64,000 bases of DNA from Flavobacteriales bacterium (GCA_041391825.1 JAWKNF010000008.1:36943-100942); one strand, 5' to 3'; shown: positions 9,082 to 48,795, counted from the first letter of the stretch. Notes: generated from the sequence alone by a model not told the origin. A program made the numbers and translations.

Positions 9082-9084
9082 GGT

Positions 9085-12505: not shown

Positions 12506-12547
12506 TCGTGATATGCGCTGCTGGGGAAGGGTGAAGGCCGGTCCTGT

Positions 12548-14565: not shown

Positions 14566-14651
14566 CACGCTCAGAACACCCCGCTTTGCGGAAGGTTCAT
14601 CGGGCCGTGCAGTTGTGCGAACAGGATGGCATGGGCGGCTGTTCAAGTTCC

Positions 14652-15343: not shown

Positions 15344-15423
15344 GCGCTCGCTCACCCGCTTGGACCGTTAGTGTCCGGACCACCTTCACATGGATACCTT
15401 ACCTTCAGTGCAAAGAACCGATC

Positions 15424-15642: not shown

Positions 15643-15648
15643 TGACTA

Positions 15649-16194: not shown

Positions 16195-16333
16195 TGGAGC
16201 GGTCTGCAAGGCAAAAGAGCAGATCCCGCGCCAGATCGTTCGATCGGCGGTGATGGTGGGTGACTGGTGCCGGGCCTCGTTCGCTCGTGAAGGACATTCG
16301 CGTGCGATCGTTGATGGGGCTTAGGTTTACCCC

Positions 16334-17551: not shown

Positions 17552-17647
17552 CTGCGGTTCAAGGCTCCGACCTGTTCTCGACGATCGACGCTCAGCCAGC
17601 ATTGACCAAAGGTTGAAACCCTATTGCTGAATGCGCGTTCAAGGCCC

Positions 17648-21081: not shown

Positions 21082-21306
21082 AATGGTGGTGTTTCAGGTG
21101 ATATGATCCAGGCTCTCTTGCATGAGCGCCACTGTGCTTGCAAAGTAATCGCTGCGAAGGACATCGGCCGAACGAGGCCCGGATGGACCTGTGGGATGGT
21201 CGTGGTCGGAATGGTACAACTGTTCGTCACCGGCACCACTTCGCATCCCCGACGCGATCCCCCCCGGGCCTGGGCCCAGCTACTTTGGACCCGCCCCTCG
21301 AATCTC

Positions 21307-22554: not shown

Positions 22555-22592
22555 GGCCTATCCCAGCATCGAACGAACCAAGACCAAGAACC

Positions 22593-23288: not shown

Positions 23289-23338
23289 AGAAGAGGGAAT
23301 TGGAACCCGATGGATGCTAGCAACGGAACCCGAACATC

Positions 23339-25774: not shown

Positions 25775-25786
25775 TCCCTGGTCGCC

Positions 25787-28195: not shown

Positions 28196-28227
28196 GCGAT
28201 CCGGCATGTTCCATTGATCCGCCGCGG

Positions 28228-29052: not shown

Positions 29053-29175
29053 GGTGGGCAACACAAGATGCGAGATCGGCTTGGAAGATGGACAATTGGC
29101 GATCAGTACTTGCTGTAGGGGATGACATGCTCAGGGCTCCATGCGTTTTCGCTTCCCTGTCCGTATTTTGCTGTC

Positions 29176-29619
29176 ATGCCGACTGATACGGAGATCTTCA
29201 CCAGCAAGGTCGCATTGCGCTGGGCGGACATCGATGCGAACTTCCATGTGCGCCATACGGTCTTCTATGACTTGGGGTCGGAGCAACGCATCCGGTTGTT
29301 GGGTGAGCTTGGAGCGCCCTTGAGCGACATGCAGTTGAACGGTTACGGTCCGGTGCTCTTCCGAGAGGAATGCCGCTTCCTCAAGGAGGTGAAGCTGGAG
29401 GACAGTGTACAGATCACCGTCTCCATTCGTGGGTTGAGCAAGGACCATCGGAAGTTCGGATGGCGCCACGTGCTCGAGCGCAACGGTGAGACCTGTGCGA
29501 TCGTGGAGGTGGACGGCGCATGGTTCGATAGCCGTACGCGGAAGGTCTTCGTACCACCGCAACAAGTGGTTGATGCCATGGATCGCTTTCCGCGCTCCGA
29601 GGATTTCGTTTGGATCTAG
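29176..29619 (+). CDS. Acyl-CoA thioesterase, hotdog fold (4HBT-like).
   Basis: MPTDTEIFTSKVALRWADIDANFHVRHTVFYDL... matches the YbgC/4HBT pattern. Confidence 0.65.
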   Translation: MPTDTEIFTSKVALRWADIDANFHVRHTVFYDLGSEQRIRLLGELGAPLSDMQLNGYGPVLFREECRFLKEVKLEDSVQITVSIRGLSKDHRKFGWRHVLERNGETCAIVEVDGAWFDSRTRKVFVPPQQVVDAMDRFPRSEDFVWI

Positions 29620-29643
29620 CTGCGATCGATCACCTGCGCCGGA

Positions 29644-30213
29644 TCACCAGACCAGGTCCGACCCGTAGGGCGCGGTGGCGATCACGTGCACGGAAACGTA
29701 CTGCGTGAGCGGGTCCACATCGACCCTGAACGCGGTCAGGGTGTACGCTTCCGTCGTTCCCGTACGGGCTATGAAGGTCGAATAGCGCAGGTCGGGTGGC
29801 GGGGCCTGTATCCCGCGGGCCGCACCGCCATAGGCCCTGAATGTTGCCAGCACTTCGCCGAAGATCCAGCGCCGGTCCGTGTGATGCGGGTCCTCTTCCA
29901 GCGCACTGTGCAACAGTGTGCCATGTGCACCGAGCTGCGCGGGGATTTCGGCCTCGCCGCTGTTGTCCGAACGCATCAGCAGCGTGCCGGCAGCGCATTG
30001 TACCACCGTGCTGCAATGCCCGCTACTGCTCGGAACATCATCCGTGCCTTCCGATCGGCCGGTGATGATCAGGTCCGGGATATGGTCACCGGTCAGGTCG
30101 ACTTCGAGGTAGGGAAGGACGCCACATGGATCCATGAGGTACAGATCGTCGCCCGGTTGTGCACAGAGCAGTGTACACCAGATGGATCCGATCAAGAGGA
30201 ATGTCGTTCTCAT
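29644..30213 (-). CDS. Secreted hypothetical protein.
   Basis: Signal peptide MRTTFLLIGSIWCTLLCAQ. The ATGA overlaps the upstream gene. Confidence 0.5.
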   Translation of the reverse strand: MRTTFLLIGSIWCTLLCAQPGDDLYLMDPCGVLPYLEVDLTGDHIPDLIITGRSEGTDDVPSSSGHCSTVVQCAAGTLLMRSDNSGEAEIPAQLGAHGTLLHSALEEDPHHTDRRWIFGEVLATFRAYGGAARGIQAPPPDLRYSTFIARTGTTEAYTLTAFRVDVDPLTQYVSVHVIATAPYGSDLVW

Positions 30214-30731
30214 CGTCGTGCCAATGGAATATCGATCACGGTAAAAGGCGCCTCGTTCGCGTCCATGTGGTAGGCTTCATGGTCGTATCTGCCGCAAAGC
30301 GAATAAGGGATGCCCATCGGTATCGGCATGATCGTCTGAACGAATACGGTACCGCTTCGCCAATTACGTTCATCCTGTACCAGAATGGAACAGCCGCGTA
30401 GGTCCGTGCCCAGGCCGATCACCAGTACGTAGTTATCCTGAGCGATCGGGAAGAGCCTATCGCCGTGCCGCGGGCGGTGGTTCACACCAAGTGCGTCGAA
30501 GGCATCCGGGTCGTTGTTCCTGAAAAATGGTGGGAACGGACGACCACCGTAGGTCATGGGTACATTGTTGCTGTCCAGCAAGGTGATGCGCAGGTCCTTG
30601 AGCACCGTACCATCACCGGTAGCGTGTGGCCGCACAACGAGGAGCGCTGCACCGCAATACCCACAATGCTGTGCGGGGAGAAAGTGGCCGAAAAGGCAAA
30701 GAAGGAGGAATGGAACGATGCGCATGATCAT
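30210..30731 (-). CDS. Secreted hypothetical protein.
   Basis: Signal peptide MIMRIVPFLLLCLFGHFLPAQ. Confidence 0.5.
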   Translation of the reverse strand: MIMRIVPFLLLCLFGHFLPAQHCGYCGAALLVVRPHATGDGTVLKDLRITLLDSNNVPMTYGGRPFPPFFRNNDPDAFDALGVNHRPRHGDRLFPIAQDNYVLVIGLGTDLRGCSILVQDERNWRSGTVFVQTIMPIPMGIPYSLCGRYDHEAYHMDANEAPFTVIDIPLARR

Positions 30732-30778
30732 CTGTACACGCCACCGCTCAGGAGGTTCGATCGCCCACGGGAGGATCC

Positions 30779-31665
30779 TCAGTCAACCGACATGCGATAC
30801 CGCTCTTCCTCCGTAGCACGTCCACTGGGGACCAAAGCCTTCCCATCCCAGCGCAGGTATTCGCGCCGCACGAAGCGTGTGATGTAGGACGTGTCCTCGT
30901 CCTCAGGCGCGTCCTGATAGTCGCTGGTCACGCGGATGATGGTGCTCGCGATGCCCTCCATGTCGCTTGGATGGATGAAGGACACGTTGGTGCTGAACGC
31001 ACCGTCGGGCGAACCCATCAGGTCGGCCACATGGTGGAACTTTCCACCGCTCCAGAACACAACGACCTCGCCGGTCGTGCATCCGCAACCACCGATGCAT
31101 GGAACGCGCAGGGTGATGATGTCATCCACCAAGGGCACGCCAAGATCGCCCTGGTTGTTCACTTCATCGAAGCCATGGGCGAAGCTCCGCACCACGATGC
31201 GGTCCAGTTCCTTTCCGTTCTGTAAGGCCACGATCCGGTATCCATGGTCAGTGACCCCGGTATCGGATGGGGTGATGTGGTCAATGCCTCCGACGAATTT
31301 CACCGTTGCATCGGCCGTGCTGCCGAAGCTGCGCTGCGCGATATGACCGCCCCATACCCAACCGTTGTCTTCGATCCCGCTATTACGCGGTACCACGCGC
31401 TGGTCAAACCGTGGAGGCGGAGTTCTTCCGGGCTACGCTCCTCGATCGAGACCGGTGTGCCGGCTGACAGTGTGGCCACGAGACCGGCTTGGACGAAGGG
31501 TGCGCTGCGCATCGCCACATCGCCTCGGAGGATGTATTCTCGCTGTGTTTCCTGCGGAAAGAGGTAATTGCCCCTGGGCGTGTGGTGCACGGTAGGTACT
31601 TCCTCCTGTGCCACGATGAACGAAGGCAACAGGACAAGGACCTGGATCGACTTAAGTCGTCGCAT
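30779..31665 (-). CDS. Secreted hypothetical protein, apparently frameshifted near 31300-31396.
   Basis: Two overlapping minus-strand ORFs. The upstream one starts with signal peptide MRRLKSIQVLVLLPSFIVAQ and runs into the downstream ORF. Confidence 0.4.
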
Positions 31666-31913
31666 TGCCTCCAAGGGGTTCATGGCCCGCACTGCGCCAT
31701 GTTCCAAAGGTAGCGCCATGTGCAGGGGAGTGGATGCGGTTTCACCCGGTTCGGCACACACTCCCGCGAGATCACATCATCCACGTACGATACATCGCGC
31801 ATGACAGGAGTCCACTTCGGGCCCGGATCAGATCATGCGGCAATGTCGTTGTAATACCGGGAACATGCCACTTGCACGAGACACGTGAACAAGGAACTTA
31901 TAGGAGTGGATCA

Positions 31914-32655
31914 TCAGCGCATCAGCATCACCGGATGCATACGTCGACTGTTCCGGCCCATCGCCTCCACCCATGCCACCGAAGTGCCAACAGGGATCTG
32001 CTGCACATCAAGCGGGATGATGCGTTCCTCACCAGCCGACATGTCGGCGTCCATCAATACGTGGGACCGACGGCCCAAGGCATCCACTACGGTGATGCGC
32101 ACACGTTGTGCCGTGGTGCTGCGTACACGCACACTCGCCACCTCGCTCATCGGATTGGGCGAAACCACCAGTTGCAGGTCATCGTCGCTGGCGATGCTGT
32201 CCGCGGCAACGGGCTCACAAGCACCCAATAGGCAACCGTGCGCCAAGTGGGCCGGCACACCGTTCGCGCTGATGCAGATCGTATGCGCATTCGCGGGGTT
32301 CCCGGGTGGTATGTGACAGACCGCCACCTTGTTTCCGTTGTTGCCGCAATGCACATCCACTACGTTCACGAAAACGGAATCCGAGGCCATGCATAAGGTG
32401 TCGTCCGTCAGCGTCACCACGTACCATCCACTGGTCGTATCACACACGGTAATGGAAGCCCCTGTGGAACCGTTGCTCCAGAGCAGCGCTGCGGGTTGCG
32501 CAGCGGTCACATCAGGGACTGAGGGTGGCACAGGCCAGCGGTTCATAGCCCCAGTAGATGGTAACGGTGTCCGCAGGAAGGTCCACACTGCACTGGGCAT
32601 GTGCGAAGGTGGTGGCCAGAAGAAGGGCGGTGGAAAGCGCGTAGCGTTGGATCAT
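31914..32655 (-). CDS. Small secreted Cys-rich protein with a CHIPPGNP motif and a T9SS-like C-terminal domain; frameshifted near 32500.
   Basis: Signal peptide MIQRYALSTALLLATTFAHAQ in one frame, with the body in the next frame. Conserved block KVAVCHIPPGNPANAHTICISANGVPAHLAHGCLLGAC. C-terminal LQLVVSPNPMSEVASVRV... Confidence 0.5.
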
Positions 32656-33186
32656 ATGCCCTCAAGTTAGGTCCGTTTTGTTCCTGTTGTCAAGGCTGAT
32701 ACCGAAGTGGGGACCCGTTCCAGGATGCTAAGGACCGGGTGGTCGTTCGTGTGTACCGCATGCAAATGCGTCCTGCAACCCTTGTTCGATCAACGCTTCT
32801 CAGCAATAAAGCCATCGCACAACCCGGCGGGCAGGGCATGGACGTGCATTTCGATGTTCAGGATGAAGGCGTTCATCAGGCCTTGGATCACGAGAATGCA
32901 GATCGGGCGACCGCGTACCGATCCAAGCTGATCGATCGGCGGACGGAGGAGGGTTTCGACACCATTATCCGGCACCGTACGAGCCACACGGAGGACCTGC
33001 GCTCCTTTGAGGAATACATATGGTGCGTTATTTCGGAGATCGCCAAGCCATGCCCTTCCTAGGCCCCCAGCATGGATCGCACGAACAGTCGTAGATCTGG
33101 TGGCTCCGAACTTCAGGTATGACGTAAATTGTGGTGTACGGTGCAGGCCATGAGCAAGGTGGCTCGCACTGAAAGATATCCGATCG

Positions 33187-33963
33187 ATGAAGCAAACTCC
33201 TTTTCCTCTTGGGTTTCTACCCGCTTCGGGTGCATTCGCACAGCTCCCCAACGGGAGCACGGCACCAGACTTCACCCTCACCGACTACTACGGCACCACG
33301 CACAACCTGTATGCCTACTTGGATGCGGACAAGACCGTGTTCGTGGAGATCTTCGCTGCCCATTGCCCCACGTGCTGGGCCTACCATCAGACGCACCGGC
33401 TGAAGAACATCTACGAGCAGTACGGCCCCGATGGTACGGATGAATTGATGGTGCTGGCCTTGGAGCACGATCCCTGGAACGACTCCACCGCCTTCACCGG
33501 GAACCATGAACCGTGGGTAACGGCAGGGGATTGGTTGACAAGTACCCCATACCCGATCTTCAACGTGGAGGATCCGGATCGCGGGGTGTTCACGGACTAC
33601 AACGTCACCTACTACCCGGTGATCTACAAGATCTGTCCGGACCGGATCCTGGAGCGTGTGTTCCCCTCCGAAACGGAAACACAGCTCTACCAGAAAGTGG
33701 AGGAATGCCAGTTGTTCGCCGCGATCGAAGAGGGGCCGGACCTGGGCCTGATCCGCGTCGATCCGCTCTCGCGCAGCCTGATCATCGATCGTTACCAGGA
33801 GGTGCAGGGGCTGGAGGTGATGGACCTGCAAGGGAGGACCATCCGAAGCATCGGGGCCATCAACAGCTCGACCATACCGCTGGGTGAGCTTCGGACCGGG
33901 GTTTATCTGTTCCGCATCCGAACGGAGCGCGGGCCTGTGGTGAAACGCTTCGTGTTGGAGTAG
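33187..33963 (+). CDS. Thioredoxin-like (TlpA/redoxin family) thiol-disulfide oxidoreductase with a T9SS C-terminal sorting domain.
   Basis: Signal peptide; APDFTLTDYYGTTHNL...KTVFVEIFAAHCPTCW has the CxxC motif. The CTD reads GLEVMDLQGRTIRSIG...LGELRTGVYLFRIRTERGPVVKRFV. Confidence 0.75.
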   Translation: MKQTPFPLGFLPASGAFAQLPNGSTAPDFTLTDYYGTTHNLYAYLDADKTVFVEIFAAHCPTCWAYHQTHRLKNIYEQYGPDGTDELMVLALEHDPWNDSTAFTGNHEPWVTAGDWLTSTPYPIFNVEDPDRGVFTDYNVTYYPVIYKICPDRILERVFPSETETQLYQKVEECQLFAAIEEGPDLGLIRVDPLSRSLIIDRYQEVQGLEVMDLQGRTIRSIGAINSSTIPLGELRTGVYLFRIRTERGPVVKRFVLE

Positions 33964-33992
33964 GAGGACGGCCCTGCGGTCGGAGCGGCCTG

Positions 33993-35569
33993 CTACTGAA
34001 CGATCAACTTCTTCGCGAAGGAGCCATGGTCCGTACTGACCCGCACGAAATAGATGCCATGTTTCAGATCGGAAAGGTCGATCGACCCCCGATCCTGTTG
34101 CAGCACGAAGGACCGCAGTTCGTTGCCGAGCAGGTCCACTACTTGCACCATTGGTCGGGTCATACCGCTGAAGCGCGGGTAGTACAGCACCGTGCGGTCT
34201 TGGGCCGGGTTCGGGTACAGCGCGAAGGCATCTTCCGCATCCGACATGTCCGGACCCAGCGTTGTGTTTGTGTTGATCGTGACCGCTTGGGAGAAGTTGT
34301 TGGAGCAGTTCGAAGCATTGGTGTTGTTCACGACCACGTTCACAGTGCCGATCGGACCAGCACCCCAGTTGACATCGATGCTGTTGGTGGAGGAGGAGCC
34401 CGTTCCGCCGTCAACGATCCATGCATAGGTGTAGCTGGCGACCAGTGGAACACTGTATGTGGCCGACTGACTGCGCAACAGTGGCAGGGCCATCGATCAT
34501 CATGGAAGGTCGCGGAGCGCTGCCCAGAAGGCGTTGAAGTTGGCCCTGTTGGAAATTGCCCACGTACACGGTGTCGCTGGCGACATGGATCGCTTGTACG
34601 GTGCTCCACACGTTCGACGCACGAGGCGTTCTAACAGGTGGCCTGCGCGCATTGCTGATCCTGGATCTGCGTACACATAGCGTTTGTCCGCCCAGGAGGT
34701 AGGAGTTAAGCGCCACCCAGATGTAGTCGCCATCCGGTAGAGGCTCAGTGTTTCAAAGCTGCTGTTGTTCGGAGCGAAAGGGTCACGTTGCCGCTGAGGT
34801 CATAGGCCGCAACGCCTTGACGAGGTACCCCACCGACCATGTCGAAATCGCCACCCACGCAGAGGTGGTCGTTCGTGGCGCACGATGGCCGTGACCCTGA
34901 AGCGAGCCATCAATGGTCCGGACAGGTGGCTGTCCAAGGCCCCGGTGAGCTTGTCGAAACGACAGAGGTCGCCGTACACGAGGCTGGTACAAGCTGAACT
35001 GCCCACCCACGTACACATGGTCATCGCCCACATGCACGGCATTGATGTTCGGCCCGCCGGCACTGAAATCCGGGGAGCCTCTGCCATCCGGTGGCCAAGC
35101 CTGTGGCATCCACGGCAACGAGCCTCGAAGGGTTCAGCTTGCAGTAACAGAAGGTGCTGTCTTCCACACCAACGCCTTGCCTCCAGGAAATGAAATTCGC
35201 ACTGTCGTCTACCTGTTCTGTTGCCCGTGGCCAGGTCGAACATGCAAATGCCCAGTCTGGGCTGGCTGTTCACGGTCTGGAATGGATTCCACCGACCATC
35301 AGTTTGTCCGCCACCCCGTTGATGGAGGTGACCGTGTTCGTGATATCCGTCGGGCTCCAGGCATCGAGTTCGTTGGTGGTGGCGCTGGAAGGGCCAGGCC
35401 AGCGCGGAACGCCATCGACCATGCTGAATTGCTCACCGATGTAAACGGTATTGCCGACCTTCTCGATGGCGTACACATCCGTGTTCGGTACAGGCCCGCC
35501 GAGCAGGGTTTGCGAGGGCGGCAAATGAGAGGGAACAGAGCAGGAGGGTAAGGAGGGTCTGGCGTGCAT
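33993..35569 (-). pseudogene. T9SS cargo protein with beta-propeller-type repeats and an Ig-like region, broken by many frameshifts.
   Basis: N-terminal signal peptide MHARPSLPSCSVPS... then VYAIEKVGNTVYIGEQFS, with NAVHVGDDHVYVGGQFS repeats in other frames. The C-terminal piece carries YAWIVDGGTGSSSTNSIDVNWGAGPIGTVNVVVNN and the T9SS CTD ALYPNPAQDRTVLYYP...GIYFVRVSTDHGSFAKKLIV. At least five frame changes are seen. Confidence 0.55.
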
Positions 35570-35707
35570 GGAGCCTGTACGTGCAAGACGGGCAATGGAG
35601 GATGGTTGTGCGGGCGGCCACGCCTTAGTCGCGCTTCTTCACACCCTGATAGAGGCCCAGCAGCTCGTCAAGCACTCAGATAGGGAATGCGCCAACGCAC
35701 AAGGCCA

Positions 35708-35790
35708 GCGCATTTTGCAAGACCAACCTATGTCCCGGCGCAGCCGACCACAGCGCGCATTTGCATAGGCTGTGACAGTCTTGCAGCACA
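35708..35790. repeat. Hairpin (inverted-repeat) element TTTTGCAAGAC...TGCATAGG...GACAGTCTTGCA, copy 1 of 3.
   Basis: Shares the TTTGCAAGAC-(C)CTATGTCC...GCATTTGCATAGG...GACAGTCTTGCA skeleton with copies at 44596-44680 and 45160-45235. Confidence 0.6.
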
Positions 35791-36499
35791 CAACCCATCA
35801 ACACCTCCCATCGCGATGCACCCCACTGGTCCCGCTCACCTCGTCCTGAGCTTCTTCACCGCTGCTGCAAGCACGCCTCAGGTCGAATTCGCCCGCGTTC
35901 AGCGCGTCCAAGCGAAGTGTAGCGCAAGGGCCAGCGTGCCGAGGTCCTCGTAGGGGCCACTGCTCACCCTCTCCATGGCGCGATTCTGACCGTCATTTTG
36001 ATGAGTACCCATTTGCCCTGGGTAAGTCCCGCCAGCTGTATCAGGCGCAATCGATACTTCCAGTTCCGTGCGGGTCATGGCGGTGCGGATCCTTCAAAGG
36101 ACGAGAACGCGGCTTTGTTGCGGATAAGGCGCCGTTGCTGCCGTCGTAGACCGACCGCGCTTATCGCATGTTCTAACCGTCGTGCGCTATGTGCAAGTAG
36201 CATCACGCATTGCACATACACAGCTACATCATGCGCCAGTCGTCGGCAGGTGGCCGCAAAGCGGGGATGTCCACGATCAGCGCGGCCGCGTCCGGCTCGG
36301 GGTCTTGTGCTGCGAGCCAGTGCGAGCTTGGACTGGCTTTGGTAGCCTGCCCCGGGCCCGACTCCGGGGTGGCGCCTTTTTTGATGGAAGCCCTGGCAGA
36401 ATTGATGCGGGGCCGGCGAAGCAAAAGGTGAAGACAATAGCGGACACCAAACTGCAGGCATTGCCCACACAGCATTGTCATCCATCACCAAGCATGCGG

Positions 36500-36915
36500 A
36501 TGCACTGTCACTTCGCACTGCTTGGTCCGCCACGTAGCACTGTTGGGTCCGTCACGTAGCACGTGGTGCTCCGTCACTTAGCACTGGTTGGTCAATCACT
36601 TACACTGCATCCATCAGGCAGCACTGGGTGGTCCATCACTTAAGCACTGGGTGGTCCACCACTTAGCACTAGGTGGTCAGGGACCACTCTACACTGGGTG
36701 GTCCACCACTTGAAGACTGGGTGTCCACCACTTAGCACTGGGCAATGCACCACTCAGCACTGGGTGGTCCATCACTTAGCACTGGGTGGTCCACCACTTA
36801 CACTCAGGTGGACCACTTAGCACTGGGTGGTCCACCATCAGTATTGGTGGTCGACCACTTAGCACCGGGGTGGTCCATCACTTAGCACTGGGTGGTCCAT
36901 CACTTAGGCCTGTAT
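36500..36915. repeat. Tandem array of about 18 imperfect 22-bp units, consensus CACTTAGCACTGGGTGGTCCAY.
   Basis: Read directly: ...cacttagcactgggtggtccat cacttagcactgggtggtccac cacttagcact... Copies are more degenerate at the left end. No ORF is present and the unit length is not a multiple of 3. Confidence 0.85.
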
Positions 36916-37975
36916 GCCGCCGTGCACGCCCCCGCTTATGGTAGTTTCCGATAGCATTATAGGACTTTCCAGTTACCGTATCGGCAACGGCGATAGGCCG
37001 CATGTCCTGTGCACGAGCGCCGCGCGAGGGACGCCATGGAATTCACCAGCGGCCGAAAAACCAAGAACGCCATGAGAGCGAACATCAAGACGGACTTGCC
37101 AACATGCTGCCCCCAGCCTTGCTGGCCTTCTTCAACCACATCATCGCGAAGCTCACCGGCAATCGCGACGTTCCTCAATCCGCCCATGTCCATAGTGGAT
37201 ATGACCACCCGGAAGTTGCCGCAGACTGCCATCTCCGCCGCCATCGATGGCAACAGCACCGACCGCGCCCACCGCAACGCCGTGGTGAAGGAGGTGCAGG
37301 ACGTGCTGCGCATCACGGCGGGGATCATGCGCGCGCCGAATGCGAGCGGCGACGCCGAGCCTGCTCACCACCGGCGGCTACCCTGGCCAAACAGCCCGAG
37401 ACGTACACGGAGTGTGGCATCCCCAAGAACGCAGCGCCAGTGCCACTGATGTAAGCGGCGAGGGTGAAGCTGTGGTGGGCTGCACGCAGGCCGCGCGCAT
37501 GTTCCGCATCGAACAGGCTTTCACCAGTGACCCCACCCTGGGCGAGACCACCCAGCCAACGTAGCAGGGGTGAGCCGCCAGCGCGTTTCACCGTTCCGGT
37601 CCTCTACGCCTGGCAGCTACTTCTAATTCCGCATCATCGCCATGGGCATCGACAGAAGGCCTACTGGCTGACGGCACTGGGCTGCCCCAGATAGCTCGGT
37701 ACCCCAGTCCTGACATGCCAGCCCCGGCACCGAAGAGGAATGCGGAGGTGGCGGGGTTATTGCGTTAGCTGCAATACCCACGCCAGCCTGCCGTAGCCAA
37801 TGGCCTTTAACCCGCCGGGCGTCTGTTGGTGACGAATGCCTGTATGGACGTTACAAAAAGCTTATGCAAGAAGAAGCATTATCGGTTGTAGTGTTGTAGT
37901 GGCTTGTCAGTAACTGTGTGGAAAGGCTTTGTATTTGGGATATTACTAGCGAACATTTGTCTCCATCTTAGCGCA

Positions 37976-39322
37976 ATGCGCTTTGTCGATTTATTCGCCG
38001 GTCTAGTGGCTCACGTTGGGCTCGAACGACTTGGACACGAGTGTGTCTTCGCGAGTGAGTTGGACCTGATGTTACAGGACGTGTCTATGAAAAGAATCAT
38101 GGTATTCGTCCAGTAGGTGATATTCGAAAGGTGAAATCTGGGCGATGTGCCCGAACACGACATTCTATGTATGCTTCCATGCCAACCATTTTCTAAGGCG
38201 GGAGAACAAGCTGGATCTGATTGTCTACGAACGGCTCACTTCGATGAAGTTCATCGGGTAATCCGATACCGTAAGCCTGAGTACGTCATCCTTGAGAATG
38301 TCCCGAATCTGCGGCACTCACGATGATGGGCGTACATGGGCATCAATCAAACAGAGCCTTGAGTAGGCTCGGATACGCGGTTGCAGAATGTATCTACTCG
38401 CCGCATGAGTTTGGCATAATTCTGATCTGAAAGCGACTGCCGCCCGTTGCTAAGCGAGACGAAGGGTTCTGCTGGCCGAAGCGACCTGTGAACCTGTCGT
38501 CGTTGCGCAACATTCTTGACAAGGAGCCAATTGGTGCCCGACCACTCAGCCCCAGTTGTAGACTGTCTGGAAGTATGGCAGGACTTCTTGAATCGAATAC
38601 CCAAGGACGCCCCATTTTCCAGTCATGGTCGATGGAGTTCGGTGCGACGTACCCTTCGAGGAGCAGACGCTGTTCTCTAGGCAGCGAAGGGCTTAGGCAT
38701 ATCGAGGGGCGCAAGGTATGAGACTTGACAGAAGAGATATTCCAGATGCGTTCGAGGCGCTGCTATCTTATGCGCGCACTGAGGACGACCAGTTCCCAGC
38801 TTGGGAAGCGAGCGTTCATAAGGCCGAACCGAGCGTTCTATCAGAAACACAAACGAGAACTGAAATCGTGGTTGCTGGAGATCCTCCGCTTCCCACCGTC
38901 GCCGCAGAAGTTCGAGTGGAATTGTAAGGGAGGTGAGCGCGATGTTTGAAGTATGATCCAGTTTCGGCCTAGGCGCGTGCAACGACCTGACACGAGTCCT
39001 TCATTGGTCGCAATGATCACTACACAGGTTCATCATCGGCTGGGAACGCTACATGACCACTAATGAATGCGCTCAATTACAATCGTTTGGACTGCTGAAG
39101 CATCTGCCCTCCACTGGAACGAAAGCCTTTAAGGCGTTTGGCAATGCGGTGAATGCAAGGTTGGTGGCCAACGCTGGCGAACTTCTTGATGCCCATCAGG
39201 ATGCTGCACCATCCGCTACGAAGCCAATCAGGCAGAGCACCACTTACTGCTCGCTTGATATGTATCTTCTTTACTATGGACGTCAATATCCGCCCAGGGG
39301 TCAATATTCTTTCTGTACTTAA
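37976..39322 (+). pseudogene. C5 cytosine-specific DNA methyltransferase (Dcm-type), heavily frameshifted and stop-interrupted, inside a low-GC segment.
   Basis: Motif I MRFVDLFAGL...GLERLGHECVFASELD; motif IV QPFSKAGEQAGSD in a shifted frame; motif VI ILENVPNL; motif X LTTNECAQLQSFGLLKHLP...AFKAFGNAVNARLVA. No single frame stays open for more than about 90 aa. Confidence 0.7.
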
Positions 39323-39344
39323 TACCTGAGCTATAAGCATTGGT

Positions 39345-40481
39345 ATGCTCGGCGAGTTCGTCGACAATGCAGTCAACAGCGGCATAGAGCGCAATTGGAA
39401 TCGACTGCAATCGATGCATGGTCAAGGTTACAAGCTGCGCGTGGACATTGAGACGATAAGAACGACGGTGTGTCGCATCGTTATCTGCGACAATGCTGCT
39501 GGCATCGCTTCTGTCGACTACCAACGTGCTTTTCGGACCGCAGAGATACCAATTGATCGTACTGGTTTCTCTGAGTTCGGGATGGGGATGAAGAGTGCTG
39601 GCTTCTGGTTCACCAACACATGGACTGTCCGCACAAAAGCCATTGGTGAGAACCGTGCAGGCAAGATTTATTTGATCTAGCCAGGGCATCATGGATGGTG
39701 GTCTTGAGACTCTGCCGGTGGAAGAGGAGCTCGCGAAAATGGAGGAGCATCATCGAGTTGGTACTTCTTTCGGCCAGCTAAGATGGTCAAGAGACCATTG
39801 GAAAGATTTCAAGGAGCATCTCACGAGCATCGCCAGTTCCTCAATGTGAGGGGAAGCTGGAGATATATTATGACGGCGAGTTGCTCCACTATGAAGAACT
39901 TAAAATTCTGGAAGCGGCTAATCCCAGAGACCCCGGGCAAAGTGGTCGTCTGAAGAAGCAAGTGGACGTCCGACTTGCAGGCAACAAGCGCATACACGGG
40001 TTCGTAGCGATTCGCGAGGAAGCGAAGCTGTCGTGGAGGCTTGGATTGGCCTTGTTCCGTCGCGGTCGGTCGATCTTGGGGAGCGGGGATGGCTATCGAC
40101 TCCACTTCCGTGTTCGGACAACCTAACAGTTAGTCGCTATCAACGGCATTCAAGAACTACACGTCGAAGGCTTTGGAGTAAGCCATACAAAGGATGTTAT
40201 CCAGTGGGAACATTCCCGAAGAGGACTTCGTTGGTTCTCAGGAAGTGATTGATGCAGAGCCGTTGCCGATTTTGAAGATGGCGGAAGAATACCGCGCACG
40301 AACAAGGACCACGAGCATTGTCCGAGCAGCACAATCTGCAGCAGCGTCAACGGCGCAAGCTTCTGGCGCGGCGCAAGCGATCATCGATGGCCAGCGACAT
40401 GAGCAAAAGCTGTTCCTAGCCCACTGCCAGTATCGCTTCCTTTGTCAGTTGAGATACCTGCAACCAAAGAGTTCAAATTGA
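39345..40481 (+). pseudogene. GHKL-type ATPase (HATPase_c_3/MORC-like), frameshifted after about 110 aa.
   Basis: N-box EFVDNAVNSG, G1 box ICDNAAGI, G2 box FGMGMKSAG in the first 111 aa. Downstream pieces continue in other frames. Confidence 0.55.
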
Positions 40482-40815
40482 CTTTTCTCGTATCAGGAGT
40501 GGCTCGTCACTATCGATCTGGCGAACGATTCTGCAATAGAGGACTGGCTGGATATATCGCAGAACCAAAGGAGCGATAGGCAGCGCCAATTGAAAATTCG
40601 CGTGAACCTTCGCGCATCCGTTCATGCAACGGTTCAGTGGGGCATCCGGGGAACAGATCGAGCTCATGTTGCGCGTTGCGGGCTGCGTTAGCCATTGCAG
40701 AGACTATTGCTCGATGTTGGGGTTCGACAAGCGGGTACTATCAGACAGCATAAACGAGTTGCCCAGAAGTTGCCCTTATGCGCCGAGCGAGACGAACGAC
40801 TAACAGGTGGCATGA

Positions 40816-42400
40816 GTGATATTCAACTTGATTGAACCAAACATGGCATCTTCTGGTGTTGGCTGGGTACCTGCAATTGGGCAGGAGACCGAAGATCTTC
40901 TTGAACACTTCAAGGGGAAGTTGGACGAAGTGCAGGGAGCGAGAACCTCATTGAATCAACGACTCGGATTTCGGCCAATGCGCTCTAACAGTTGGCCCTG
41001 CAGACAACAGCAACCGGTCTGGTAGCTGGATATGTTCAGAGCGGCAAGACGATGTCCTTTACGACCGTGGCTGCGATGGCAGTGGACAACGGCTATCCAG
41101 TGGTAATTGTAATAACTGGCACGTCCAACGACCTATATCGACAGTCCGCACAGCGACTTGAACAAGACCTCTGCCTTCATTCGCGCTTTGACCGCAAGTG
41201 GCAACATCTGCAAGAACCAAGACAGAACGAAGGTGACCGCATCAGCAGGATACTCCAGATTGAGGACCCTAGCGTGCCAATTCCTTGATCGACAGATACT
41301 TTGTTACAATCAAGAAGAACTGGAGTGTGCTACGGAGGCTGATCACTTTGCTGCGCCAATGCGACCTGAACGGAATTCCTGCTTTGATCATCGATGACGA
41401 GGCGGATCAGGCGAGCTTGAACACTAGAGTGAACGATGACGATGAGAGCGCTACTTACGCCCGTATTCGTGGGCTCCGAGGTTTATTCCCCTGTCAAGCA
41501 CCTTTCTGCAGTACACTGCTACGCCGCAAGCCAATCTACTCATCAACATCCTTGATAGCCTTTCTCCCGACTTTGTTGAGTTGCCAACACCCGGTGAAGA
41601 CTACTCCGGTGGTATCGAGTTTTTCGGTGATGACTCCAGGTCTCGTTCGCGATATACCCGTGAACGAACTACCTGCGCGGAACAACCCTGCACCTGAGGT
41701 TCCTGAAACCTTGATGGAAGCGATGCGTGTGTTCTTCCCGCTGGTGTGGCTATCGGCACATTAAGGGTGAGGCGCGTCAGGGCAAGAACCGCAGCATGTT
41801 GGTACATCCATCTCGAGAAACCAATCCACAGGGGTACTATGCACAATGGGTCAGGCATCTCAAGCGCCACTGGAAGCGGACTCTTTCTCAGCCGGAGGGC
41901 ACCAGGACGATAGGAGTTACTCGAGGACTTCAAGTCGGCGTTTGATGATATCGCCCAGACTGTTCCCGAGGACTGCCGACATGGGAGGAAGTCTCCAATG
42001 CATTGTGCCGGGCGATTGCAAAGACCGATAGCGGGGAAGTGAACTCAACCACGCGTTTGGTGGCTGATACCAATTACATCAGACTATGCGCGGATACTCA
42101 TTGGCGGCTACACTCGATCGGCTTCACAATTGAAGGTCTAACGGTGACTCATATGCCGCGAGGACTTGGGTCTATGGAACTGCTGACACGCTGCAACAGC
42201 GTGCTCGCTTCTTTGGTTATAAACGGAGCTATTTGGGGTATTGCAGGCTGTACTTGGATGCTGGCGTCCGAGATGCCTTCATTGACTACGTGGAGCACGA
42301 GGAGAGCATACGAAGAATTGAATGACCTCAGAACGCGACAAGTGCCGTTGAAGCAATGGCGGCGGGCGTTCATCTGTCTCTCCTGATTGCAAACTCACGC
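40816..42400 (+). pseudogene. Z1-domain-like P-loop NTPase, the kind of protein typically linked to C5-MTase genes; multiply frameshifted.
   Basis: LQTTATGLVAGYVQSGKTMSFTTVAAMAVDNGYPVVIVITGTSNDLYRQSAQRLEQDL is a Z1-type Walker A segment. It is followed by ...GIPALIIDDEADQASLNT (Walker B/DEAD-like) in another frame. Confidence 0.5.
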
Positions 42401-44504
42401 GGAGAAACGTTCTTTCGTTGACCATCTCCGTGATGGCGGCGACCGGTGGTTCTGGGTGAAGGCTCCGCATGCATCTATGGACTTGTGTGGCGAACCGAAT
42501 TGCATTCGACTTTTACCGACCGGCACAGTTTCTGGAACCACCTCGGCGATCTTTCGGTGCTGCTGCCACGCGGTACATGGGGTTGCTGGATTGGCGCTCA
42601 GTGACGTTTGCGAGCAGCTTCTTTTCTCAGAGGCGTTCCGAACCTGAAGAGAATCAGAAGTACGGGGTGCCTTCCAGATTGATAGGTTCCTCAGAGAGCA
42701 TCCGCATGAGCTATGCGATGTCTACATCATCTGACCGGACGATAGTGCACGATGCCGCTAACGACAAGCAGGAGATCGATAACATTTTTCAGCTCGAATA
42801 GACAGGAAGGTGATCCGCAGTACTACCTTGGTGACAGAGAAATTCACGCAGAGAGATTGACTATTCAATTGCGGCGCTTGACATTGACCCAGAACGGGGC
42901 AGAGATCAAGCACAGACATTCCGGTGCTGGCAATCTGGGTGCCTGGTTCTATGGAGCAGCAATGGCTTGTTCAATGACTAGTTGATGAAGGAGTTGCTCA
43001 AAGCGTTTGAGTTCCCTTCCTGCCTGCGTGATTCTTCTGCGGGGTTGTTCGCATTTCATACCCTCCTTGCTCTTTCCCAAGGCCCGGTTCCTCATTGCGA
43101 AGACAACTTCTTGTGTGAGGCATGCATGCTCATAGGTACGGCTGCATCCTTGGCTACACTTCCACCGCCTTTACGGTTAGAGAATCCTCACCGTTCAGCA
43201 TGTACTGACGGTCGAGTTCATAAGTTATATGGCTGCGGGTACATTCTCTGTGGTTCTTCGCAATAGCCAGCGTTCATTGGTAGAGATGTTCGTCAGGTTT
43301 TGCGGTTGTTGCTACGCATCAACTTCCTGGGACCCCATAGCGGCTGATGCGGCTTCCCACATCCAGAGGCTCGTCCTCTTCGCTTCTTCAGCACCTGCGC
43401 AAGCCAAGCACCAAGACCATTCAAGGGCTTTGAGTGAACTCTTTCTATCGCTACACGAGATAACCCTGAACGGGTCAATGGATGGCATGTGCATCCAATG
43501 GGCCTGCACGATTTCATCTTGAAGAAATTCGCTGAGGCTAACATGCCTCATAAGGTTAGTCGCATCGCTTTTCGCACAATCAACTTTCTCCACCAAGGGG
43601 GGGCATCGCTCTTCGTAGCGTCAGTGCTAATGGAACGATCCGGTCAGGGTATATCAGTGTTCGACCTGCCGAGAGGGCGCATGCACGCCTTTCTCCCAAT
43701 GCCTCACTTCTTCTTGATAGCACGCATCAATAATTTCAACGCTTGGTCTCGACTACGTGAAGTGTTGGCGGAAATCACCTGACGCTGCCTGCGCAGCAGA
43801 CTCCACTCCTCTTCTTTCCTTGGATGTGGTGCCACGCCTGTCCGCTGACACTCCCGAGCGGGTTACTGAGCATCTCCTACACCGTCAGATTATTTGACTT
43901 GACGGCGAGCCGGATTTGGTCGTTGCGTGAGCGACCGCAGCGAAAATCCCGCAAGCGTCCAGTATATTTAGGCGCGCCCAAACCTTTAAAATGTTGCCCG
44001 TGTCCAGTCACTTCAATTTTGGTCCATACCTTCCGCACCATCGTCAGCATCGCAGCAATAGCCACCGTCTCGCCGGCTGTAAAGTCGTTTATTCAGGAAT
44101 CTGTTCTTGCCAGTAGTGCAGGTGCTCCTTATAGCCGTTCCTTTCAGGGTGTTCCAAGTCCAGCATCCGCCTAGCGCCGCATCAAACGCCGCCAACTGTT
44201 CGCTTTGCACAACTCGATGAGTCTTCGTAAAGAGCATACTCGCCGTAGAGATGGAAGATGGTGTTGCCGAAGGTCCTGTCAGCTGCCCCTTGCTGACTGG
44301 TCTCGAGGCTGCAGTCCGCGAGTTCAGTTTTCAGCCATCCGGCATCGTTGTGGAGCATAGGAATCGTCGCTTGAGCAATGCTTCGGAAATGGGCATAGGT
44401 TCCGATGTCAACGAGCACGCTTCTCATCGATCTCCTCAACGCTCGCGGACCTTGCGTTTGAGGTTAAAGACGACGACATCCCACCATATCGTGCAGTCAG
44501 TTTT

Positions 44505-44770
44505 GGATAGAGCTTTCACCATGGTCAAGATCGTCGCTGTCGCCACCGTCTCCCGGTCTCATCCACATAAGAATGCTTCCGCGCATGCGGCCCGCGCTTT
44601 TTGCAAGACTGTCCTATGTCCTATGCAGCCCACCACGGGGTTCGCATTTGCATAGGACATCAGACAGTCTTTGCATCGTACAACATCAGCGCCGATCGAG
44701 TTTCCGGACCATGGTAAGAATAGTGGCAATGGCAACCGTCTCCCTGTTTCATCCACCACATCCACCAGCC
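44505..44770. repeat. About 260-bp repeat block, copy A. It contains the hairpin element and two copies of the sub-motif GCGATGGCAACCGTCTCCC-GTTTCATCCAC.
   Basis: Direct comparison with 45085-45350 shows the same order of sub-motifs at roughly 80% identity. A further partial sub-motif copy lies at about 44055. Confidence 0.7.
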
Positions 44771-45084
44771 ACTTCATGAGCCCTTGGTCTTATAGTTGAA
44801 CTTCTCACTAACAGGACCATGGTCACGAGGAAGTGAGTCCCGATGGCAATTAACAAATAGAACCACCACACAAGTGCATTGCCTCTCGAAAGAGCGAACA
44901 GTCCGTACAGAAGAGGAGTTAATTGTACAGTGCCAGGATGACCAGATGGCGGAAGATGGTTGTTTCGACTCCTGCTGCGTGCGGCGAGTGCGAAAACTGC
45001 CGCCCTCAGCAATAGATAGCCGACGAGTAGCCGACCAGGTCATCCCCGCATGGTCTCATCCGTTCTGATCCAACTTCCCCACCG

Positions 45085-45350
45085 TCGTCAAGACGTCGCA
45101 ATGGCCACCGTCTCCCGGTCTCATCCACAAAAGAAGAAGCCCGCGCACAAGGCTCAGTAAGCGTAAGACTGTACCATGTCCTATGCGCCCAGCATGGGGC
45201 TCAGATTTGTATATAGACACCGGACAGTCTTGGTATCGTACTGCTCATCGCCCTCCGATCGAGCTTCCGGACCATGGTAAGAATAGAAGGCGATGGCAAC
45301 GGTCTTCCAGTTTCGTCAACACATCCACCAGGAACTTCACAATGCCTGTC
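45085..45350. repeat. About 260-bp repeat block, copy B.
   Basis: See copy A. Confidence 0.7.
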
Positions 45351-45399
45351 GCGATGTCTGCACCTCCTTAGGGGCTGTCCTCGGTCTTCGGCTTCTTCT

Positions 45400-47250
45400 C
45401 CCGATCCACCTCTCTTTCACCGTGAACTTCACTTGATCACGGCGCCGGGGTATACTGGCTTGCGAAGCGGGCTTCCTCGACGCCGTAGTTCAGCAGCACC
45501 GGCCCTTTGGCGCATCCACGAAGAGCATGCGCGGCTGAGGATGAAGTGCTGTGCGCCACACGTCCGGTGAAGATGGTGCCGTCCAGGCGTTCTCGTCCAT
45601 GTGGGCGTAGAACTTGTCGCGCACGAGGTCCGCGAAGTTGTTGATGTCGTCCAGCGTCACGGTGTGCTTCTCGCCATCACGGTATCGCCCACCCGCACCG
45701 AAGTGCAATGCGGAAGGTGTGCTTCGGTGTAATCGTTTGCTTGGCACTTGTTGGTACTGTTGCGTGAGCGCGGTGATGGTGGTGGGGCTGCTCGATGGCG
45801 GTGTTGCAGTGCAGCACGCCGCGCTTGCCGCCCATCTCCTGGCCGCCACCCGCGCGACCAGGACCGCCGTGGCCAGCGTGGCCAAGGGTGAGCTTTCGTG
45901 GCCGGTGTTCTCCTTCGCCATGTCGCGGTCGATCACCAGCATGCGGCCGTGGTGGCTCGCAGCACCCCACACGAACTGCTGTGCGATGCTGTCGTCGTAG
46001 GTCGCGATGCCGGTACAGAGGCTCTTGCCGAGCTTGGTGAGGGCCACGGCATCGTCGATGTCCTTGTAGGGCATCAAGGTGCTCACCGACCGAAGGCCTC
46101 GATGTTGTGGCTTCGCTGGTTCTTCCACGGGTCCTTGTTCAGCAGCAGGGATGGGGCTCGCGGCTGCACCTTCGCCGCATCGGCACCGGTCACTCTACGT
46201 TTTTCGGGTCGCCGTACACCGTACCGCCGCCCTTCATCAGTTCGGCGAGGCTGTCGCGCATCAGCAGTGTTGCGTCTGTCCGGCGAGGGCACTCATGGCG
46301 CACGCCTTCGGCACGCGGGTCACCGATCACCGTGCCGAGGCGCTTGCCCAGCGACCTGCACATCCTCCACCAGGTTCTCGGGCACCCGCGATGCGCCGCG
46401 CACCGGTGCAGCGCTGGCCGCACTTCGTCATCTCCTTGCCGACCTCCTCTGATGAAGAGCGTGAACTCCTCGGTATCCGGCGTGGCATCGGGACCGAGCA
46501 CGATGCTGTTCAAACTGTCGGCCTCCATGCCGGTGCCACGCTCTCGGCGATGATGCGCGGGTGGCTTTCAGCATGCGGCCGGTCTTCGCACTACCGGTAA
46601 AGGTGACGACGTCCTGGCTTTCGACACGATCGAGCAGATCACCGCACTACCCACTTCATCAGCTGCAACGCCCCTTCGGGCAAGGGATCTGCTTTCGACG
46701 ATCGCCTTCGCCATCGCTTCGCGAGGTAGCTCGTCACGGTAGCGGGCTTCACCACGGCGGGCATCCCGGCCATCCAATTCACGGCGCACTTCTCCAGCAT
46801 GCCCCAGATAGGGAAGCGAACGCGTTGATGTGCACGGCCACGCCCTCCTTCGGCACCATGATGGTGGCCCATGAACGTCCCGCCGGCGGCTGGTGAGCAC
46901 CGGTGGTCCATCCACATAGAAGGGCATGCTGAGCCTGCTTGCGCAAGCTGGCGTTGGCGAACACGTTGCCGATGCCGCCCTCGATGTCCACCTGCACTCG
47001 TCGGCCTTGGTGGCGCCGGTGGTAGGCCGCATCTTGTAGAACTCGTCCTTGCGGTCCATGAGGTAGAGCGCGAGGGCCTTCACATGCGGCCGCTCCGGGA
47101 AGGTCATCTTGCGCAGGGGAGGACCGGCCCACTTCGCGGGCGTAAGTGAGCATGGCGCCGAAGTCCAGGCCGCTGCTTGACGTTGTGGCGATGAGTTGCC
47201 GGTGGAGGCGTCCACCAATTCACTTTATTGCCGGTGCCGGCACCCAGTGG
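45400..47250 (-). pseudogene. PaaZ-like bifunctional aldehyde dehydrogenase / MaoC-hotdog hydratase gene, high GC, riddled with frameshifts.
   Basis: Minus-strand fragments: ALDH motifs FPIWGMLEKCAVNWMAGMPAVVKPATVTSYL, ...MAKAIVES... and GDPRAEGV. The C-terminal MaoC piece reads HTVTLDDINNFADLVRDKFYAHMDENAW. The pieces are spread over all three frames. Confidence 0.5.
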
Positions 47251-47339
47251 CCGGCGATGTAGTTCTGTAGCTGCATTGGTGCTAAGGTCGGGAGGAATCG
47301 GGGAACGGCAGAGGAATGCGAATACATCCGCGATCACGT

Positions 47340-48795
47340 AGAGAGCACTTCGCTACCGCTCGTGGGTGGGGATGGTCGGGAATACATCCATAGACACAGA
47401 CGCTCTTGCCAACGCTCGTGGTGCTGGATGGTCGGCCGTGACCGCCGATTACGTTGATGTAGGTATTCTGCTACCGCTCGTGGGTGGGGATGGTCGGGAA
47501 TACATCCACAGATGTCACATCACTTCGCTAACGCTCGTGTGCTGGGATGAGTTGAATGTAGATCCGCCAACATGTTGATGCACTCGCTACTGCCGTGCGG
47601 CGTTGCCGGGCAACTCATCAGGAAAGGCTGCCGTTAGGCAAGCGATCTGCGTAATCTGCATCAGTTCTTTCCTTGACCATCCACAGATGTCGCTGCATCA
47701 CTTCGCCAACGCCCGTGTGCTGGGATGGTTGGGGAACACATCCGCGGATTACGCAGAGGTACTCGCTACCGCTCGTGGGTGGGGATGGTCGGGAATACAT
47801 CCACAGATGTCACGCATCACTTCGCTAACGCTTGTGTGTTGGGTTGGTAGGGAATATATCCGCGGATTACGCAGGACCTGTCCTGCCTAGTGGGAGGCAC
47901 CGCTACCGCTCGTGTGGCATTGCAGGGTATCTCTTATCAGCAAAGGTTGCCGTTAGCAAGCCATTCGCGTAATCTGCGATCAGTCTCTTTCCTTGACCAT
48001 CCACAGATAACACAGATCACTTCGCTAACGCCGTGTGCTGGGATGGTTGGGAATACATCCGCGGATTACGCAGAGGTATCGCTACTGCTCGTGGGTGGGG
48101 ATGGTCGGGAATACATCCACGGATGTCACGCATCACTTCGCTAACGCTTTCGTGTGTTGGGCTGGTAGGGAATACATCCGCGGATTACGTAGAGTAGACT
48201 CGCTACCGCTCGTGGGTGGGGATGGTCGTAAATACATCCACAGATGTCATTGCATCACTAACGCTCGTGTGCTGGGATGGTCGGGTCGTAGATCCGCCGA
48301 TTGCGCTGATGCACTCGCTACCGCTCGTGTGGCATTGCAGGGCATCTCATCAGGACAAGGCTGCCGTTAGGCAAGCCATCTGTGTCATCTGTGGATCGTT
48401 CTTATTCTTCCTTGATCATCCACAAATGTCACGGATCACTTCGCCAACGCTCGTGTGCTGGGATGGTCGGGTCGTAGATCCGCCGATTACGCTGATGCAC
48501 TCGCTACCGCTCGTGGGTGGGGATGGTCGGGAATACATCCACAGATGTCACGGATCACTTCGCTAACGCTCGTGTGCTGGGATGGTTGGGGAATACATCC
48601 GCGGATTACGCAGAGGTACTCGCTACCGCTCGTGTGGCGTTGCCGGGCAACTCATCAGGAAAAGGCTGCCGTTAGGCAAGCCATCTGCGTGATCCCGATT
48701 CTCGGGACAGGTCCTGCGGATCGTTTCTTTTTCCTTGACCATCCACAGATGTCACGGATCACTTCGCTAGTGCTCGTGGCTGGGATGCGTTGAAC
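47340..48795. repeat. Complex higher-order tandem repeat of about 1.45 kb. It alternates about 59-bp X and Y units (CGCTCGTG..GGGATGGTCGGGAATACATCC...) with interspersed about 125-bp Z units.
   Basis: More than 20 units read directly from the sequence. Each unit has the GGATG-N10-CATCC mini-hairpin. Y units carry the palindrome TCCGCGGA. Z units share GGCATTGCAGGGCATCTCATCAGGA-AAGGCTGCCGTTAGGCAAGCCATCTG. There is no consistent reading frame. Confidence 0.85.

Follow-up and report, generated by a model that had tools for sequence, protein, structure and literature searches.

Three hairpins beside a decayed paaZ gene in a Flavobacteriales contig as candidate gene-end flanks at a recurrent insertion site

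Results

Copies of the paaZ 3′ end downstream of the gene

We analyzed a 64,000-nucleotide (nt) stretch of one strand from Flavobacteriales bacterium (GCA_041391825.1, JAWKNF010000008.1:36943-100942; the window, with positions counted from its first letter), in which a hairpin element occurs in three copies (A, B and C) and the 3′ end of the gene paaZ in five. The gene lies on the minus strand as a frameshifted pseudogene (Table 1), and the paaZ genes of relatives share homology with it as far as 45254, which lies 19 nt from hairpin C. A sub-motif (GCGATGGCAACCGTCTCCC…) that a first-pass annotation of the window had listed as repeated is, when read on the minus strand, the run of last PaaZ codons (VDETGETVAIATILTMVRKL; translation …VDETGETVAIATILTMV(R/K)KL…), and it is indeed present in five copies, at 44037, 44518, 44708, 45080 and 45270. 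The corresponding copies of the paaZ 3′ end span 45346-45252, 45125-45062, 44786-44689, 44563-44502 and 44074-44027. The region from 35 to 48.8 kb contains many frameshifts and no long open reading frames (ORFs); long ORFs are present in the rest of the window.

The end of the present gene is of a different type from the remainder. Compared with three paaZ loci of relatives (L010-L012), the window's paaZ is ~85-90% identical along its length, falling to 67% over the last 60 nt. The drop begins near 45315, at codons VDETG, and the segment 45252-45315 is a replacement-type codon version of the gene end. The copy M1′ is located 190 nt downstream of the present end and keeps the relatives' …KLDQN tail. 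Because the terminal identity is only 67% and M1′ is 91% identical to the relatives' gene end, we infer that the native end was displaced and that the gene now carries a replacement end. The switch from native to replacement sequence maps near GTGGATG (~45315), where M1 and M1′ also begin; in relatives, orphan ends measure 17 to ~80 codons.

Over the shared peptide ETVAIATILTMVRKLD, replacement and native ends differ by 11 synonymous codon changes in 16 codons. Over 19 codons, the differences amount to 6-11 synonymous and 2-3 non-synonymous codons, the latter mostly in the last two residues. As almost all of these differences are synonymous, the replacement end appears to have a history as functional coding DNA elsewhere. 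Ends with this codon version lie directly upstream of the HicB cassette in two relatives (L018 and L013).

Hairpins B and C lie in a duplicated block for which the first-pass annotation had given a size of roughly 260 bp. The duplication stands, at the larger size of ~308 nt (44469-44776 and 45033-45339, 75% identical), with two end copies in each block and identical internal junctions throughout. Four end copies (M2′, M2, M1′ and M1) lack the same single base within GGnGAGAC (45303, 45113, 44741 and 44551), unlike every relative, and M0 (GGCGAGAC, ~44063) retains the base that the other four have lost. In M1′, M1 and M2 the gap resembles a homopolymer miscall of G4 to G3 and could be one, or else could reflect gene conversion, so an assembly artefact may account for some of the decay seen here.

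A 120-nt unit containing the hairpin

The three hairpins are present at the places given in the first-pass annotation, whose quoted arm sequence is that of copy B. Each is part of a 120-nt unit, and all three units are in direct orientation (Table 1). The unit exceeds the palindrome, comprising a short GC hairpin, a T5/A5 run, the long hairpin and ~17 nt more. A 22-nt arm probe run across the 64 kb matched only at the three copies (0.00 matches expected from shuffles), and neither the probe nor an nhmmer profile detected further copies of the unit in the other 54 kb of the window. Pairwise identities of the units are 73% (A-B), 68% (B-C) and 56% (A-C), which places B closest to the common ancestor.

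Among the three, B alone is intact as a palindrome and forms a strong hairpin, in which a 2x2 internal loop separates a 12-bp stem bearing one bulged T from a stem of 12-14 bp. Folded as single-stranded DNA it reaches −27 to −28 kcal/mol (each strand at z = −6), and A (z = −1.5/−2.0) and C (z = −1.1/−0.3) fold no better than shuffled sequence. Folding of the aligned copies gives an unfavourable covariation term. Since their pairing is lost and the covariation term is unfavourable, A and C seem to be under no present selection. Rfam yielded no match, either at the gathering threshold over the whole window or at an E-value threshold over 44300-45500.

Read in the sense of paaZ, the order of elements is stop codon, 13-16 nt, long hairpin, A5, short GC hairpin and T-rich tail (CTTCTTTTGT in C, ATTCTTATGT in B). 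A terminator scan reported only the short GC hairpin of C, and the count of terminator-like sites was no higher than in shuffled sequence.

Hairpins past the last paaZ end in other species

A profile of the 120-nt unit matches a pair of related loci, L015 and L016, at 18649-18726, directly past the stop codon of the most distal paaZ end. The first-pass annotation had counted a lack of conservation in relatives among the observations that would refute its reading; the element is in fact conserved in another species. The L015/L016 hairpin reads TGTCCCATGTCCCATG…CATGGGACA / TGCACGATTGTCCCATGTCCCATG…CATGGGACAGGAGAC and then comes a CCTTGTGCGCC block, which can likewise be aligned to the short GC hairpin of the window. 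Its inner stem carries one compensatory change, T·A to C·G, in both left-arm 7-mers. Apart from L015 and L016, no cluster of the 7-mers occurs elsewhere in the window or in the ten relatives' loci scanned.

A second, unrelated hairpin family occupies the position held in L015 by the TGTCCYATG hairpin. In L018 (10671-10732), the last paaZ end is followed by GGGCGYGCCCCGGCTC…GAGCCGGGGTCGSGC, with 20-nt arms and a 22-nt loop, and the same family (GGGCGYGCCCCGGCTC…GAGCCGGGGTCGSGCTTTCCGCTGCAA) follows the last paaZ end in L013 (~8830-8900), L010 (~10910-10950) and L019 (~10285-10320). With the L015/L016 hairpin and the L018-type family both located there, the site past the final paaZ end regularly holds a long stem-loop. 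The hairpin of the window is one such 3′ flank, and at least two species have it.

Cassette arrays at paaZ in relatives

Relatives with an intact paaZ carry co-oriented arrays in which the gene is followed by a small cassette, a copy of the paaZ end, a further cassette and a further end copy (Table 1). The cassettes are mostly of the toxin-antitoxin type (DUF433/DUF5615-PIN, HicB, RelB/RelE-like), and some are unassigned. The end copies comprise the last 25-80 paaZ codons, each with its own synonymous-codon version of one peptide. Direct repeats of the paaZ 3′ end thereby flank the inserted DNA, five in the window and 3-4 each in L013, L015, L018 and L019. In L012, the last ~350 nt of paaZ are duplicated at a spacing of 783 nt. 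Taken together, at least six related genomes or metagenome-assembled genomes (MAGs) have a recurrent insertion hot spot in the last paaZ codons.

A 1.08-kb HicB–DUF433–DUF5615 cassette is first in the array of L018 and second in that of L013 (91% identity), from which it follows that L013 gained an extra cassette beside paaZ. On the contig of L006, a redoxin gene, homologous to window 33187-33963, is followed by 8 kb of toxin-antitoxin and defence genes and then by paaZ, which is encoded on the other strand. When the PaaZ C-terminus was used as query, many orphan ORFs encoding it, 50-91 amino acids (aa) long, were retrieved from Flavobacteriales MAGs. The relatives' loci have no annotated integrase or transposase.

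Two further observations were made on paaZ in these genomes. On three JGI metagenome contigs, several short ORFs stand in place of one gene (L010 8989-10803, L011 8872-11035, L012 9597-12120), and paaZ seems to be repeatedly decaying, or poorly assembled, in the clade. Five of the orphan ORFs (P0163, P0167, P0175, P0181 and P0185) contain short inserts (for example CHPERSEGQ, IPAHGRDRL and LACPGQRPG) within conserved PaaZ sequence, and these peptides look like small palindromic repeat elements within coding sequence.

Table 1. Positions of the paaZ ends, hairpin units and inserted DNA in the window, and of the paaZ arrays in related loci
Feature	Position	Strand	Remarks
paaZ pseudogene (aldehyde dehydrogenase + MaoC dehydratase), frameshifted	45252..47288	-	78-81% DNA identity to relatives' paaZ (seven loci, other species)
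Present gene end	45346-45252	-	In-frame RKLDRR*; TGA stop, hairpin C 16 nt on
M1′, displaced native-type paaZ end	45062..45128	-	VDETGETVAIAT…KLDQN; 91% identical to paaZ end of L011/L012/L018
Block B orphan paaZ end	44689..44786	-	32 codons (KWLVDVVDETGETVAIATILTMVRKLDRR*), replacement-type codons; hairpin B 13 nt past stop
M1, native-type paaZ-end copy	44502..44566	-	ETVATATILTMVKAL…, directly after unit B
M0, fifth paaZ-end remnant	44027..44076	-	GETVAIAAMLTMVRKV
Unit B, best-preserved copy	44571..44693	-	Hairpin 44602-44675; each arm two tandem 7-mers TGTCCTA/TGTCTGA
Unit C, decayed	45133..45256	-	Hairpin 45163-45235; short GC hairpin + T-rich tail at 45137-45155 (minus strand)
Unit A, decayed	35685..35805	-	Hairpin 35716-35785; flanks otherwise unrelated to B and C flanks
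Low-GC inserted DNA	37750..45250	+	50-55% GC vs 58-65% around; frameshifted genes
C5 DNA methylase, frameshifted	37976-38323	+	Pfam
HATPase_c_3, frameshifted	39348-39653	+	Pfam
Z1 domain, split over two frames	41751-42316	+	Pfam
paaZ locus L013	7100-8900		Intact paaZ, DUF433 – end – HicB, DUF433, DUF5615 – end; 3 paaZ ends
paaZ locus L018	7900-10700		Intact paaZ, HicB/DUF433, PIN/DUF5615 – end – HicB, RelB-like, unannotated ORF – end – ORF – end; 4 paaZ ends
paaZ loci L015-17	9100-18650 (L015)		Intact paaZ, two ORFs – end – 8.3-kb island – end; 3 paaZ ends
paaZ loci L019-22 (complete genome CP065018.1)	8700-10300 (L019)		Intact paaZ, ORF – end – RelE-type pair – end; 3 paaZ ends

The low-GC insert and its surroundings

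The plus-strand segment 37750-43000 is the frameshifted remains of a methylase-linked restriction-type island, and the whole low-GC (guanine plus cytosine) stretch up to 45250 would be one insert of the paaZ-end hot spot. The first-pass annotation had placed the hairpins at the left border of an island and at its interior junction with the paaZ-like pseudogene. Of these placements, that of C is exact, as it sits precisely at the junction of low-GC DNA and paaZ; B lies 560 nt inside the low-GC stretch, and A is ~2 kb outside its left border (near 37750), hence not at the low-GC border. With one copy at the border, one inside and one 2 kb beyond the left border, the hairpins do not simply delimit the low-GC island.

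Three plus-strand frames (34.5-44.5 kb) and ORF segments of at least 75 aa on both strands were scanned against Pfam for recombinases, which turned up neither a transposase nor an integrase domain from 34.5 to 45.3 kb. The window contains no tRNA genes. A tandem array at 36509-36907 has ~18 copies of a 22-nt unit (CACTTAGCACTGGGTGGTCCAC) with higher-order periodicity of 63 and 106 nt; it resembles iterons, and Pfam detects no replication or partition gene in the adjacent ORFs. A plasmid origin or origin of transfer (oriT) beside this array was considered and dropped, as replication, partition and relaxase domains were not found. Plasmid databases contained nothing relevant to the blocks, to the iteron-like region or to 20000-36500, so the DNA is not a known plasmid. 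A second, complex array (47300-48760; periods of ~60, 120 and 305 nt, units like CATCCACAGATGTCACGGATCACTTCGCTAACGCTCGTGTGCTGGGATGGTCGGGAATA) starts within ~30 nt of the 5′ end of the paaZ pseudogene.

Discussion

Hairpins as probable flanks of successive gene ends

We consider it reasonably likely that the three hairpins are 3′-flank modules of successive paaZ ends, copied along at an insertion hot spot, and hence junction scars and not a transposon. In this lineage of Flavobacteriales, the last 25-80 codons of paaZ would serve as a hot spot for foreign DNA, with inserts ranging from small toxin-antitoxin cassettes up to islands of several kb. Each insert would supply a replacement gene end, encoding the same peptide in other synonymous codons, such that paaZ stays whole while the earlier end moves downstream and becomes an orphan; over repeated rounds, such fossil ends would pile up. 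The hairpin flank would have been kept on three ends, namely the present gene end (C), the 32-codon orphan (B) and an end that is almost erased (A), and three other ends (M1′, M1 and M0) lack it. The locus now appears to be decaying, with paaZ and the island genes frameshifted and hairpins A and C unpaired.

Insertion could proceed by a trans-acting site-specific recombinase or by RecA-mediated, Campbell-type recombination between end copies. The intact hairpin probably acts in transcript 3′-end formation or in insulation of the restored gene, and its four 7-mers suggest a possible role in protein binding or recombination.

Several observations weigh against this explanation. No recombinase gene was detected in the window region (Pfam) or in any relative's locus (annotation). 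The orphan ends differ in length (17 to ~80 codons) and accordingly do not indicate a single crossover site. As the internal junctions of B and C are identical, at least one step was a segmental duplication that copied a whole junction, and not an independent insertion. Neither side of copy A has a recognisable paaZ end, and only a faint trace of the final paaZ codons is left on its right, paaZ-proximal side, so that its assignment is made from the 120-nt unit alone. Covariation gives the fold minimal support, amounting to one compensatory pair and the unfavourable covariation term. The long hairpin is not a canonical intrinsic terminator, being followed in the paaZ sense by A5 with no U-tract. 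Finally, the shared GGnGAGAC gap, which could stem from an assembly error or gene conversion, weakens the dating arguments.

A variant in which copy A is the original, native flank of paaZ was also considered and set aside, as the native-type ends M1′, M1 and M0 carry no hairpin; a native-like end with a hairpin does exist in L015, at the most distal position, which leaves this variant some room.

Alternative explanations

It is unlikely that a plain local segmental duplication of the paaZ 3′ region in decaying DNA accounts for the locus, with the hairpins as functionless by-products and no directed insertion. Such an origin fits the sharing of both end copies and the internal junctions by blocks B and C, the lack of long ORFs across 35-48.8 kb, and the fragmentation of paaZ also in L010-L012. 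However, B and C are only 68-75% identical, compared with ~80% between the pseudogene and the paaZ of other species, a divergence that recent decay in situ cannot give; since B and C have diverged by 25-32% and paaZ by ~20% between species, the two were apparently acquired already diverged and not duplicated recently in place. The two types of end differ almost solely at synonymous sites and would therefore have evolved as functional coding sequence in separate lineages. Moreover, the replacement type recurs beside cassettes in L013 and L018, and ordered cassette arrays are found in relatives whose paaZ is intact.

We regard it as quite unlikely that the hairpin is itself a recombination site of attC or Xer type, served by a recombinase encoded elsewhere and used for the insertion or exchange of cassettes and islands. 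The two tandem 7-mers (TGTCCTA) of each arm make four potential protein-binding repeats in a palindromic arrangement, and in L015 two left-arm and one right-arm 7-mers have changed in concert (CCTATG to CCCATG, with CATAGG to CATGGG). The copies are located at junctions between DNA segments of different origin, and A shares with B and C the unit alone and not the flanks. The suggestion of the first-pass annotation that the hairpins may be recombination sites delimiting an island holds to the extent that the copies do lie at hot-spot junctions; the repeat that recurs there is nevertheless the paaZ 3′ end, with the hairpin only as its downstream flank. The cassette junctions of L013, L015 and L018 contain no such hairpin, the paaZ end being what recurs there, none of the cassette ends in these three loci has inverted repeats (only the flank past the last paaZ end has one), and with nhmmer the unit was not detected in L019-L022. 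The surroundings yielded no recombinase, of integron type or otherwise, and hairpins A and C no longer pair, hence are not maintained as sites. An integron attC site, or a cluster of attC sites lacking an integrase (CALIN), was considered and dropped, as the stem base reads TGCAAGAC…GTCTT(T)GCA in all copies, with no R″/R′ boxes (RYYYAAC…GTTRRRY), and the relatives' cassettes have no hairpins.

A mobile palindrome resembling a miniature inverted-repeat transposable element (MITE) or a repetitive extragenic palindromic (REP) element, or the leftover inverted repeats of a lost insertion sequence (IS), is very unlikely, in spite of a long imperfect palindrome occurring three times within 10 kb in genomes that carry other small palindromic repeat families, some in frame in genes. 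The first-pass annotation had offered a MITE-like remnant and IS terminal repeats as candidates, yet the arms are not the ends of the unit, as the similarity of A, B and C extends ~30 nt and ~17 nt past them and that of B and C over the full 308 nt. No target-site duplications abut the arms, the sole flanking direct repeats being the 50-95-nt copies of the paaZ end, and no transposase was found. All copies are co-oriented, and B and C have the same position relative to the paaZ stop codon. Dispersed copies are absent from the window, from ~300 kb of relatives' loci, where the only other copy is at the same position in L015/L016, and from pattern scans of genome, metagenome and viral collections; of the source genome, the search covered the window only. 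The database record closest to the window's own proteins is a protein of an NCBI Flavobacteriales MAG (locus tag R2818_08195; 99% identical).

These scans used an exact pattern of the 21 specified bases conserved in all three copies; GTDB species genomes accounted for 2 of the matching loci, JGI metagenomes for 3 and viral contigs for 0. None of the five loci has similarity to the unit past the pattern and a few adjacent bases, and the rough chance expectation is ~8 for the genome collection. L002 and L003 have a few more bases in common with the unit, but no Rfam family and no arm pairing. With the 72-aa ORF spanning hairpin B as query, a HMMER search of 1.84 billion proteins produced just two weak matches, to long repeat proteins, so that translation revealed no relative either.

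Significance of the paaZ arrays

As a feature the hairpin is unremarkable, a stem-loop from a gene flank that was copied together with fragments of the gene end; of greater interest are the cassette arrays that this clade carries at paaZ. A broader proposal, which we put forward as possible though doubtful, is that the paaZ 3′ end is a cassette-acquisition platform in an uncultured Flavobacteriales clade (wastewater and environmental MAGs): co-oriented, mostly toxin-antitoxin cassettes would be added beside the gene, each with a synonymous copy of the last 25-80 codons and with neither attC nor a linked integrase, and the TGTCCYATG hairpin would be an array-terminal element acting as terminator or recombination signal. 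If true, this would be an integron-like system based on a gene-end repeat in place of hairpin sites. Defence and toxin-antitoxin cassettes accumulate between synonymous paaZ-end copies with no integrase seen, and, should the mechanism be directed, the locus would be a tractable case for the building of flexible islands in Bacteroidota. Orphan C-terminal fragments of a core gene would then be a simple signature by which to spot hot spots in metagenomes.

Comparison with known systems

The position of the hairpin recalls REP elements, bacterial interspersed mosaic elements (BIMEs) and intrinsic terminators. At paaZ a long stem-loop lies just past the stop codon and is accompanied by a short GC hairpin that has a T-rich tail, and an unrelated hairpin family is found at the same place in L018, L010, L013 and L019. 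Unlike these systems, the long hairpin has no U-tract, shows no sign of dispersed copies and has arms built of tandem 7-mers.

Integrons and CALINs, the latter being clusters of attC sites without an integrase, share with the paaZ arrays the co-oriented, small and often toxin-antitoxin cassettes downstream of a fixed point, and a ~75-nt imperfect palindrome with a bulged base is present at some junctions of the window. They differ in that the boundary at paaZ is a gene-end repeat, the hairpin does not contain the R″/R′ consensus, the relatives' cassettes have no terminal palindromes and an IntI-type gene was not found.

Genomic islands also accrete in tandem at the 3′ ends of tRNA and tmRNA genes, leaving a series of direct repeats. 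Here, too, successive insertions would occur at one gene end, and the extra cassette that distinguishes L013 from L018 adjoins the gene. In contrast, the paaZ target is protein-coding, no integrase genes are seen and the repeat lengths vary.

The nearest described parallel is the prophage e14 at icd of Escherichia coli, whose attachment there was reportedly described by Hill et al. 1989. Both e14 and phage 21 attach in the 3′ end of icd; the e14 insert supplies the last codons of the gene, and the original 163-bp end is left as the pseudogene icdC (PMC13626634, PMC6379469). Unlike at icd, no integrase adjoins the repeats at paaZ, five end copies are present instead of two, the inserts of relatives are cassettes of 0.3-2 kb and not a prophage, and some paaZ ends carry a conserved hairpin flank. 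In both cases, the insert carries a replacement 3′ end and the old end is displaced downstream as a C-terminal pseudogene, such that the insert is flanked by direct repeats, namely the two copies, between which most changes are conservative or synonymous.

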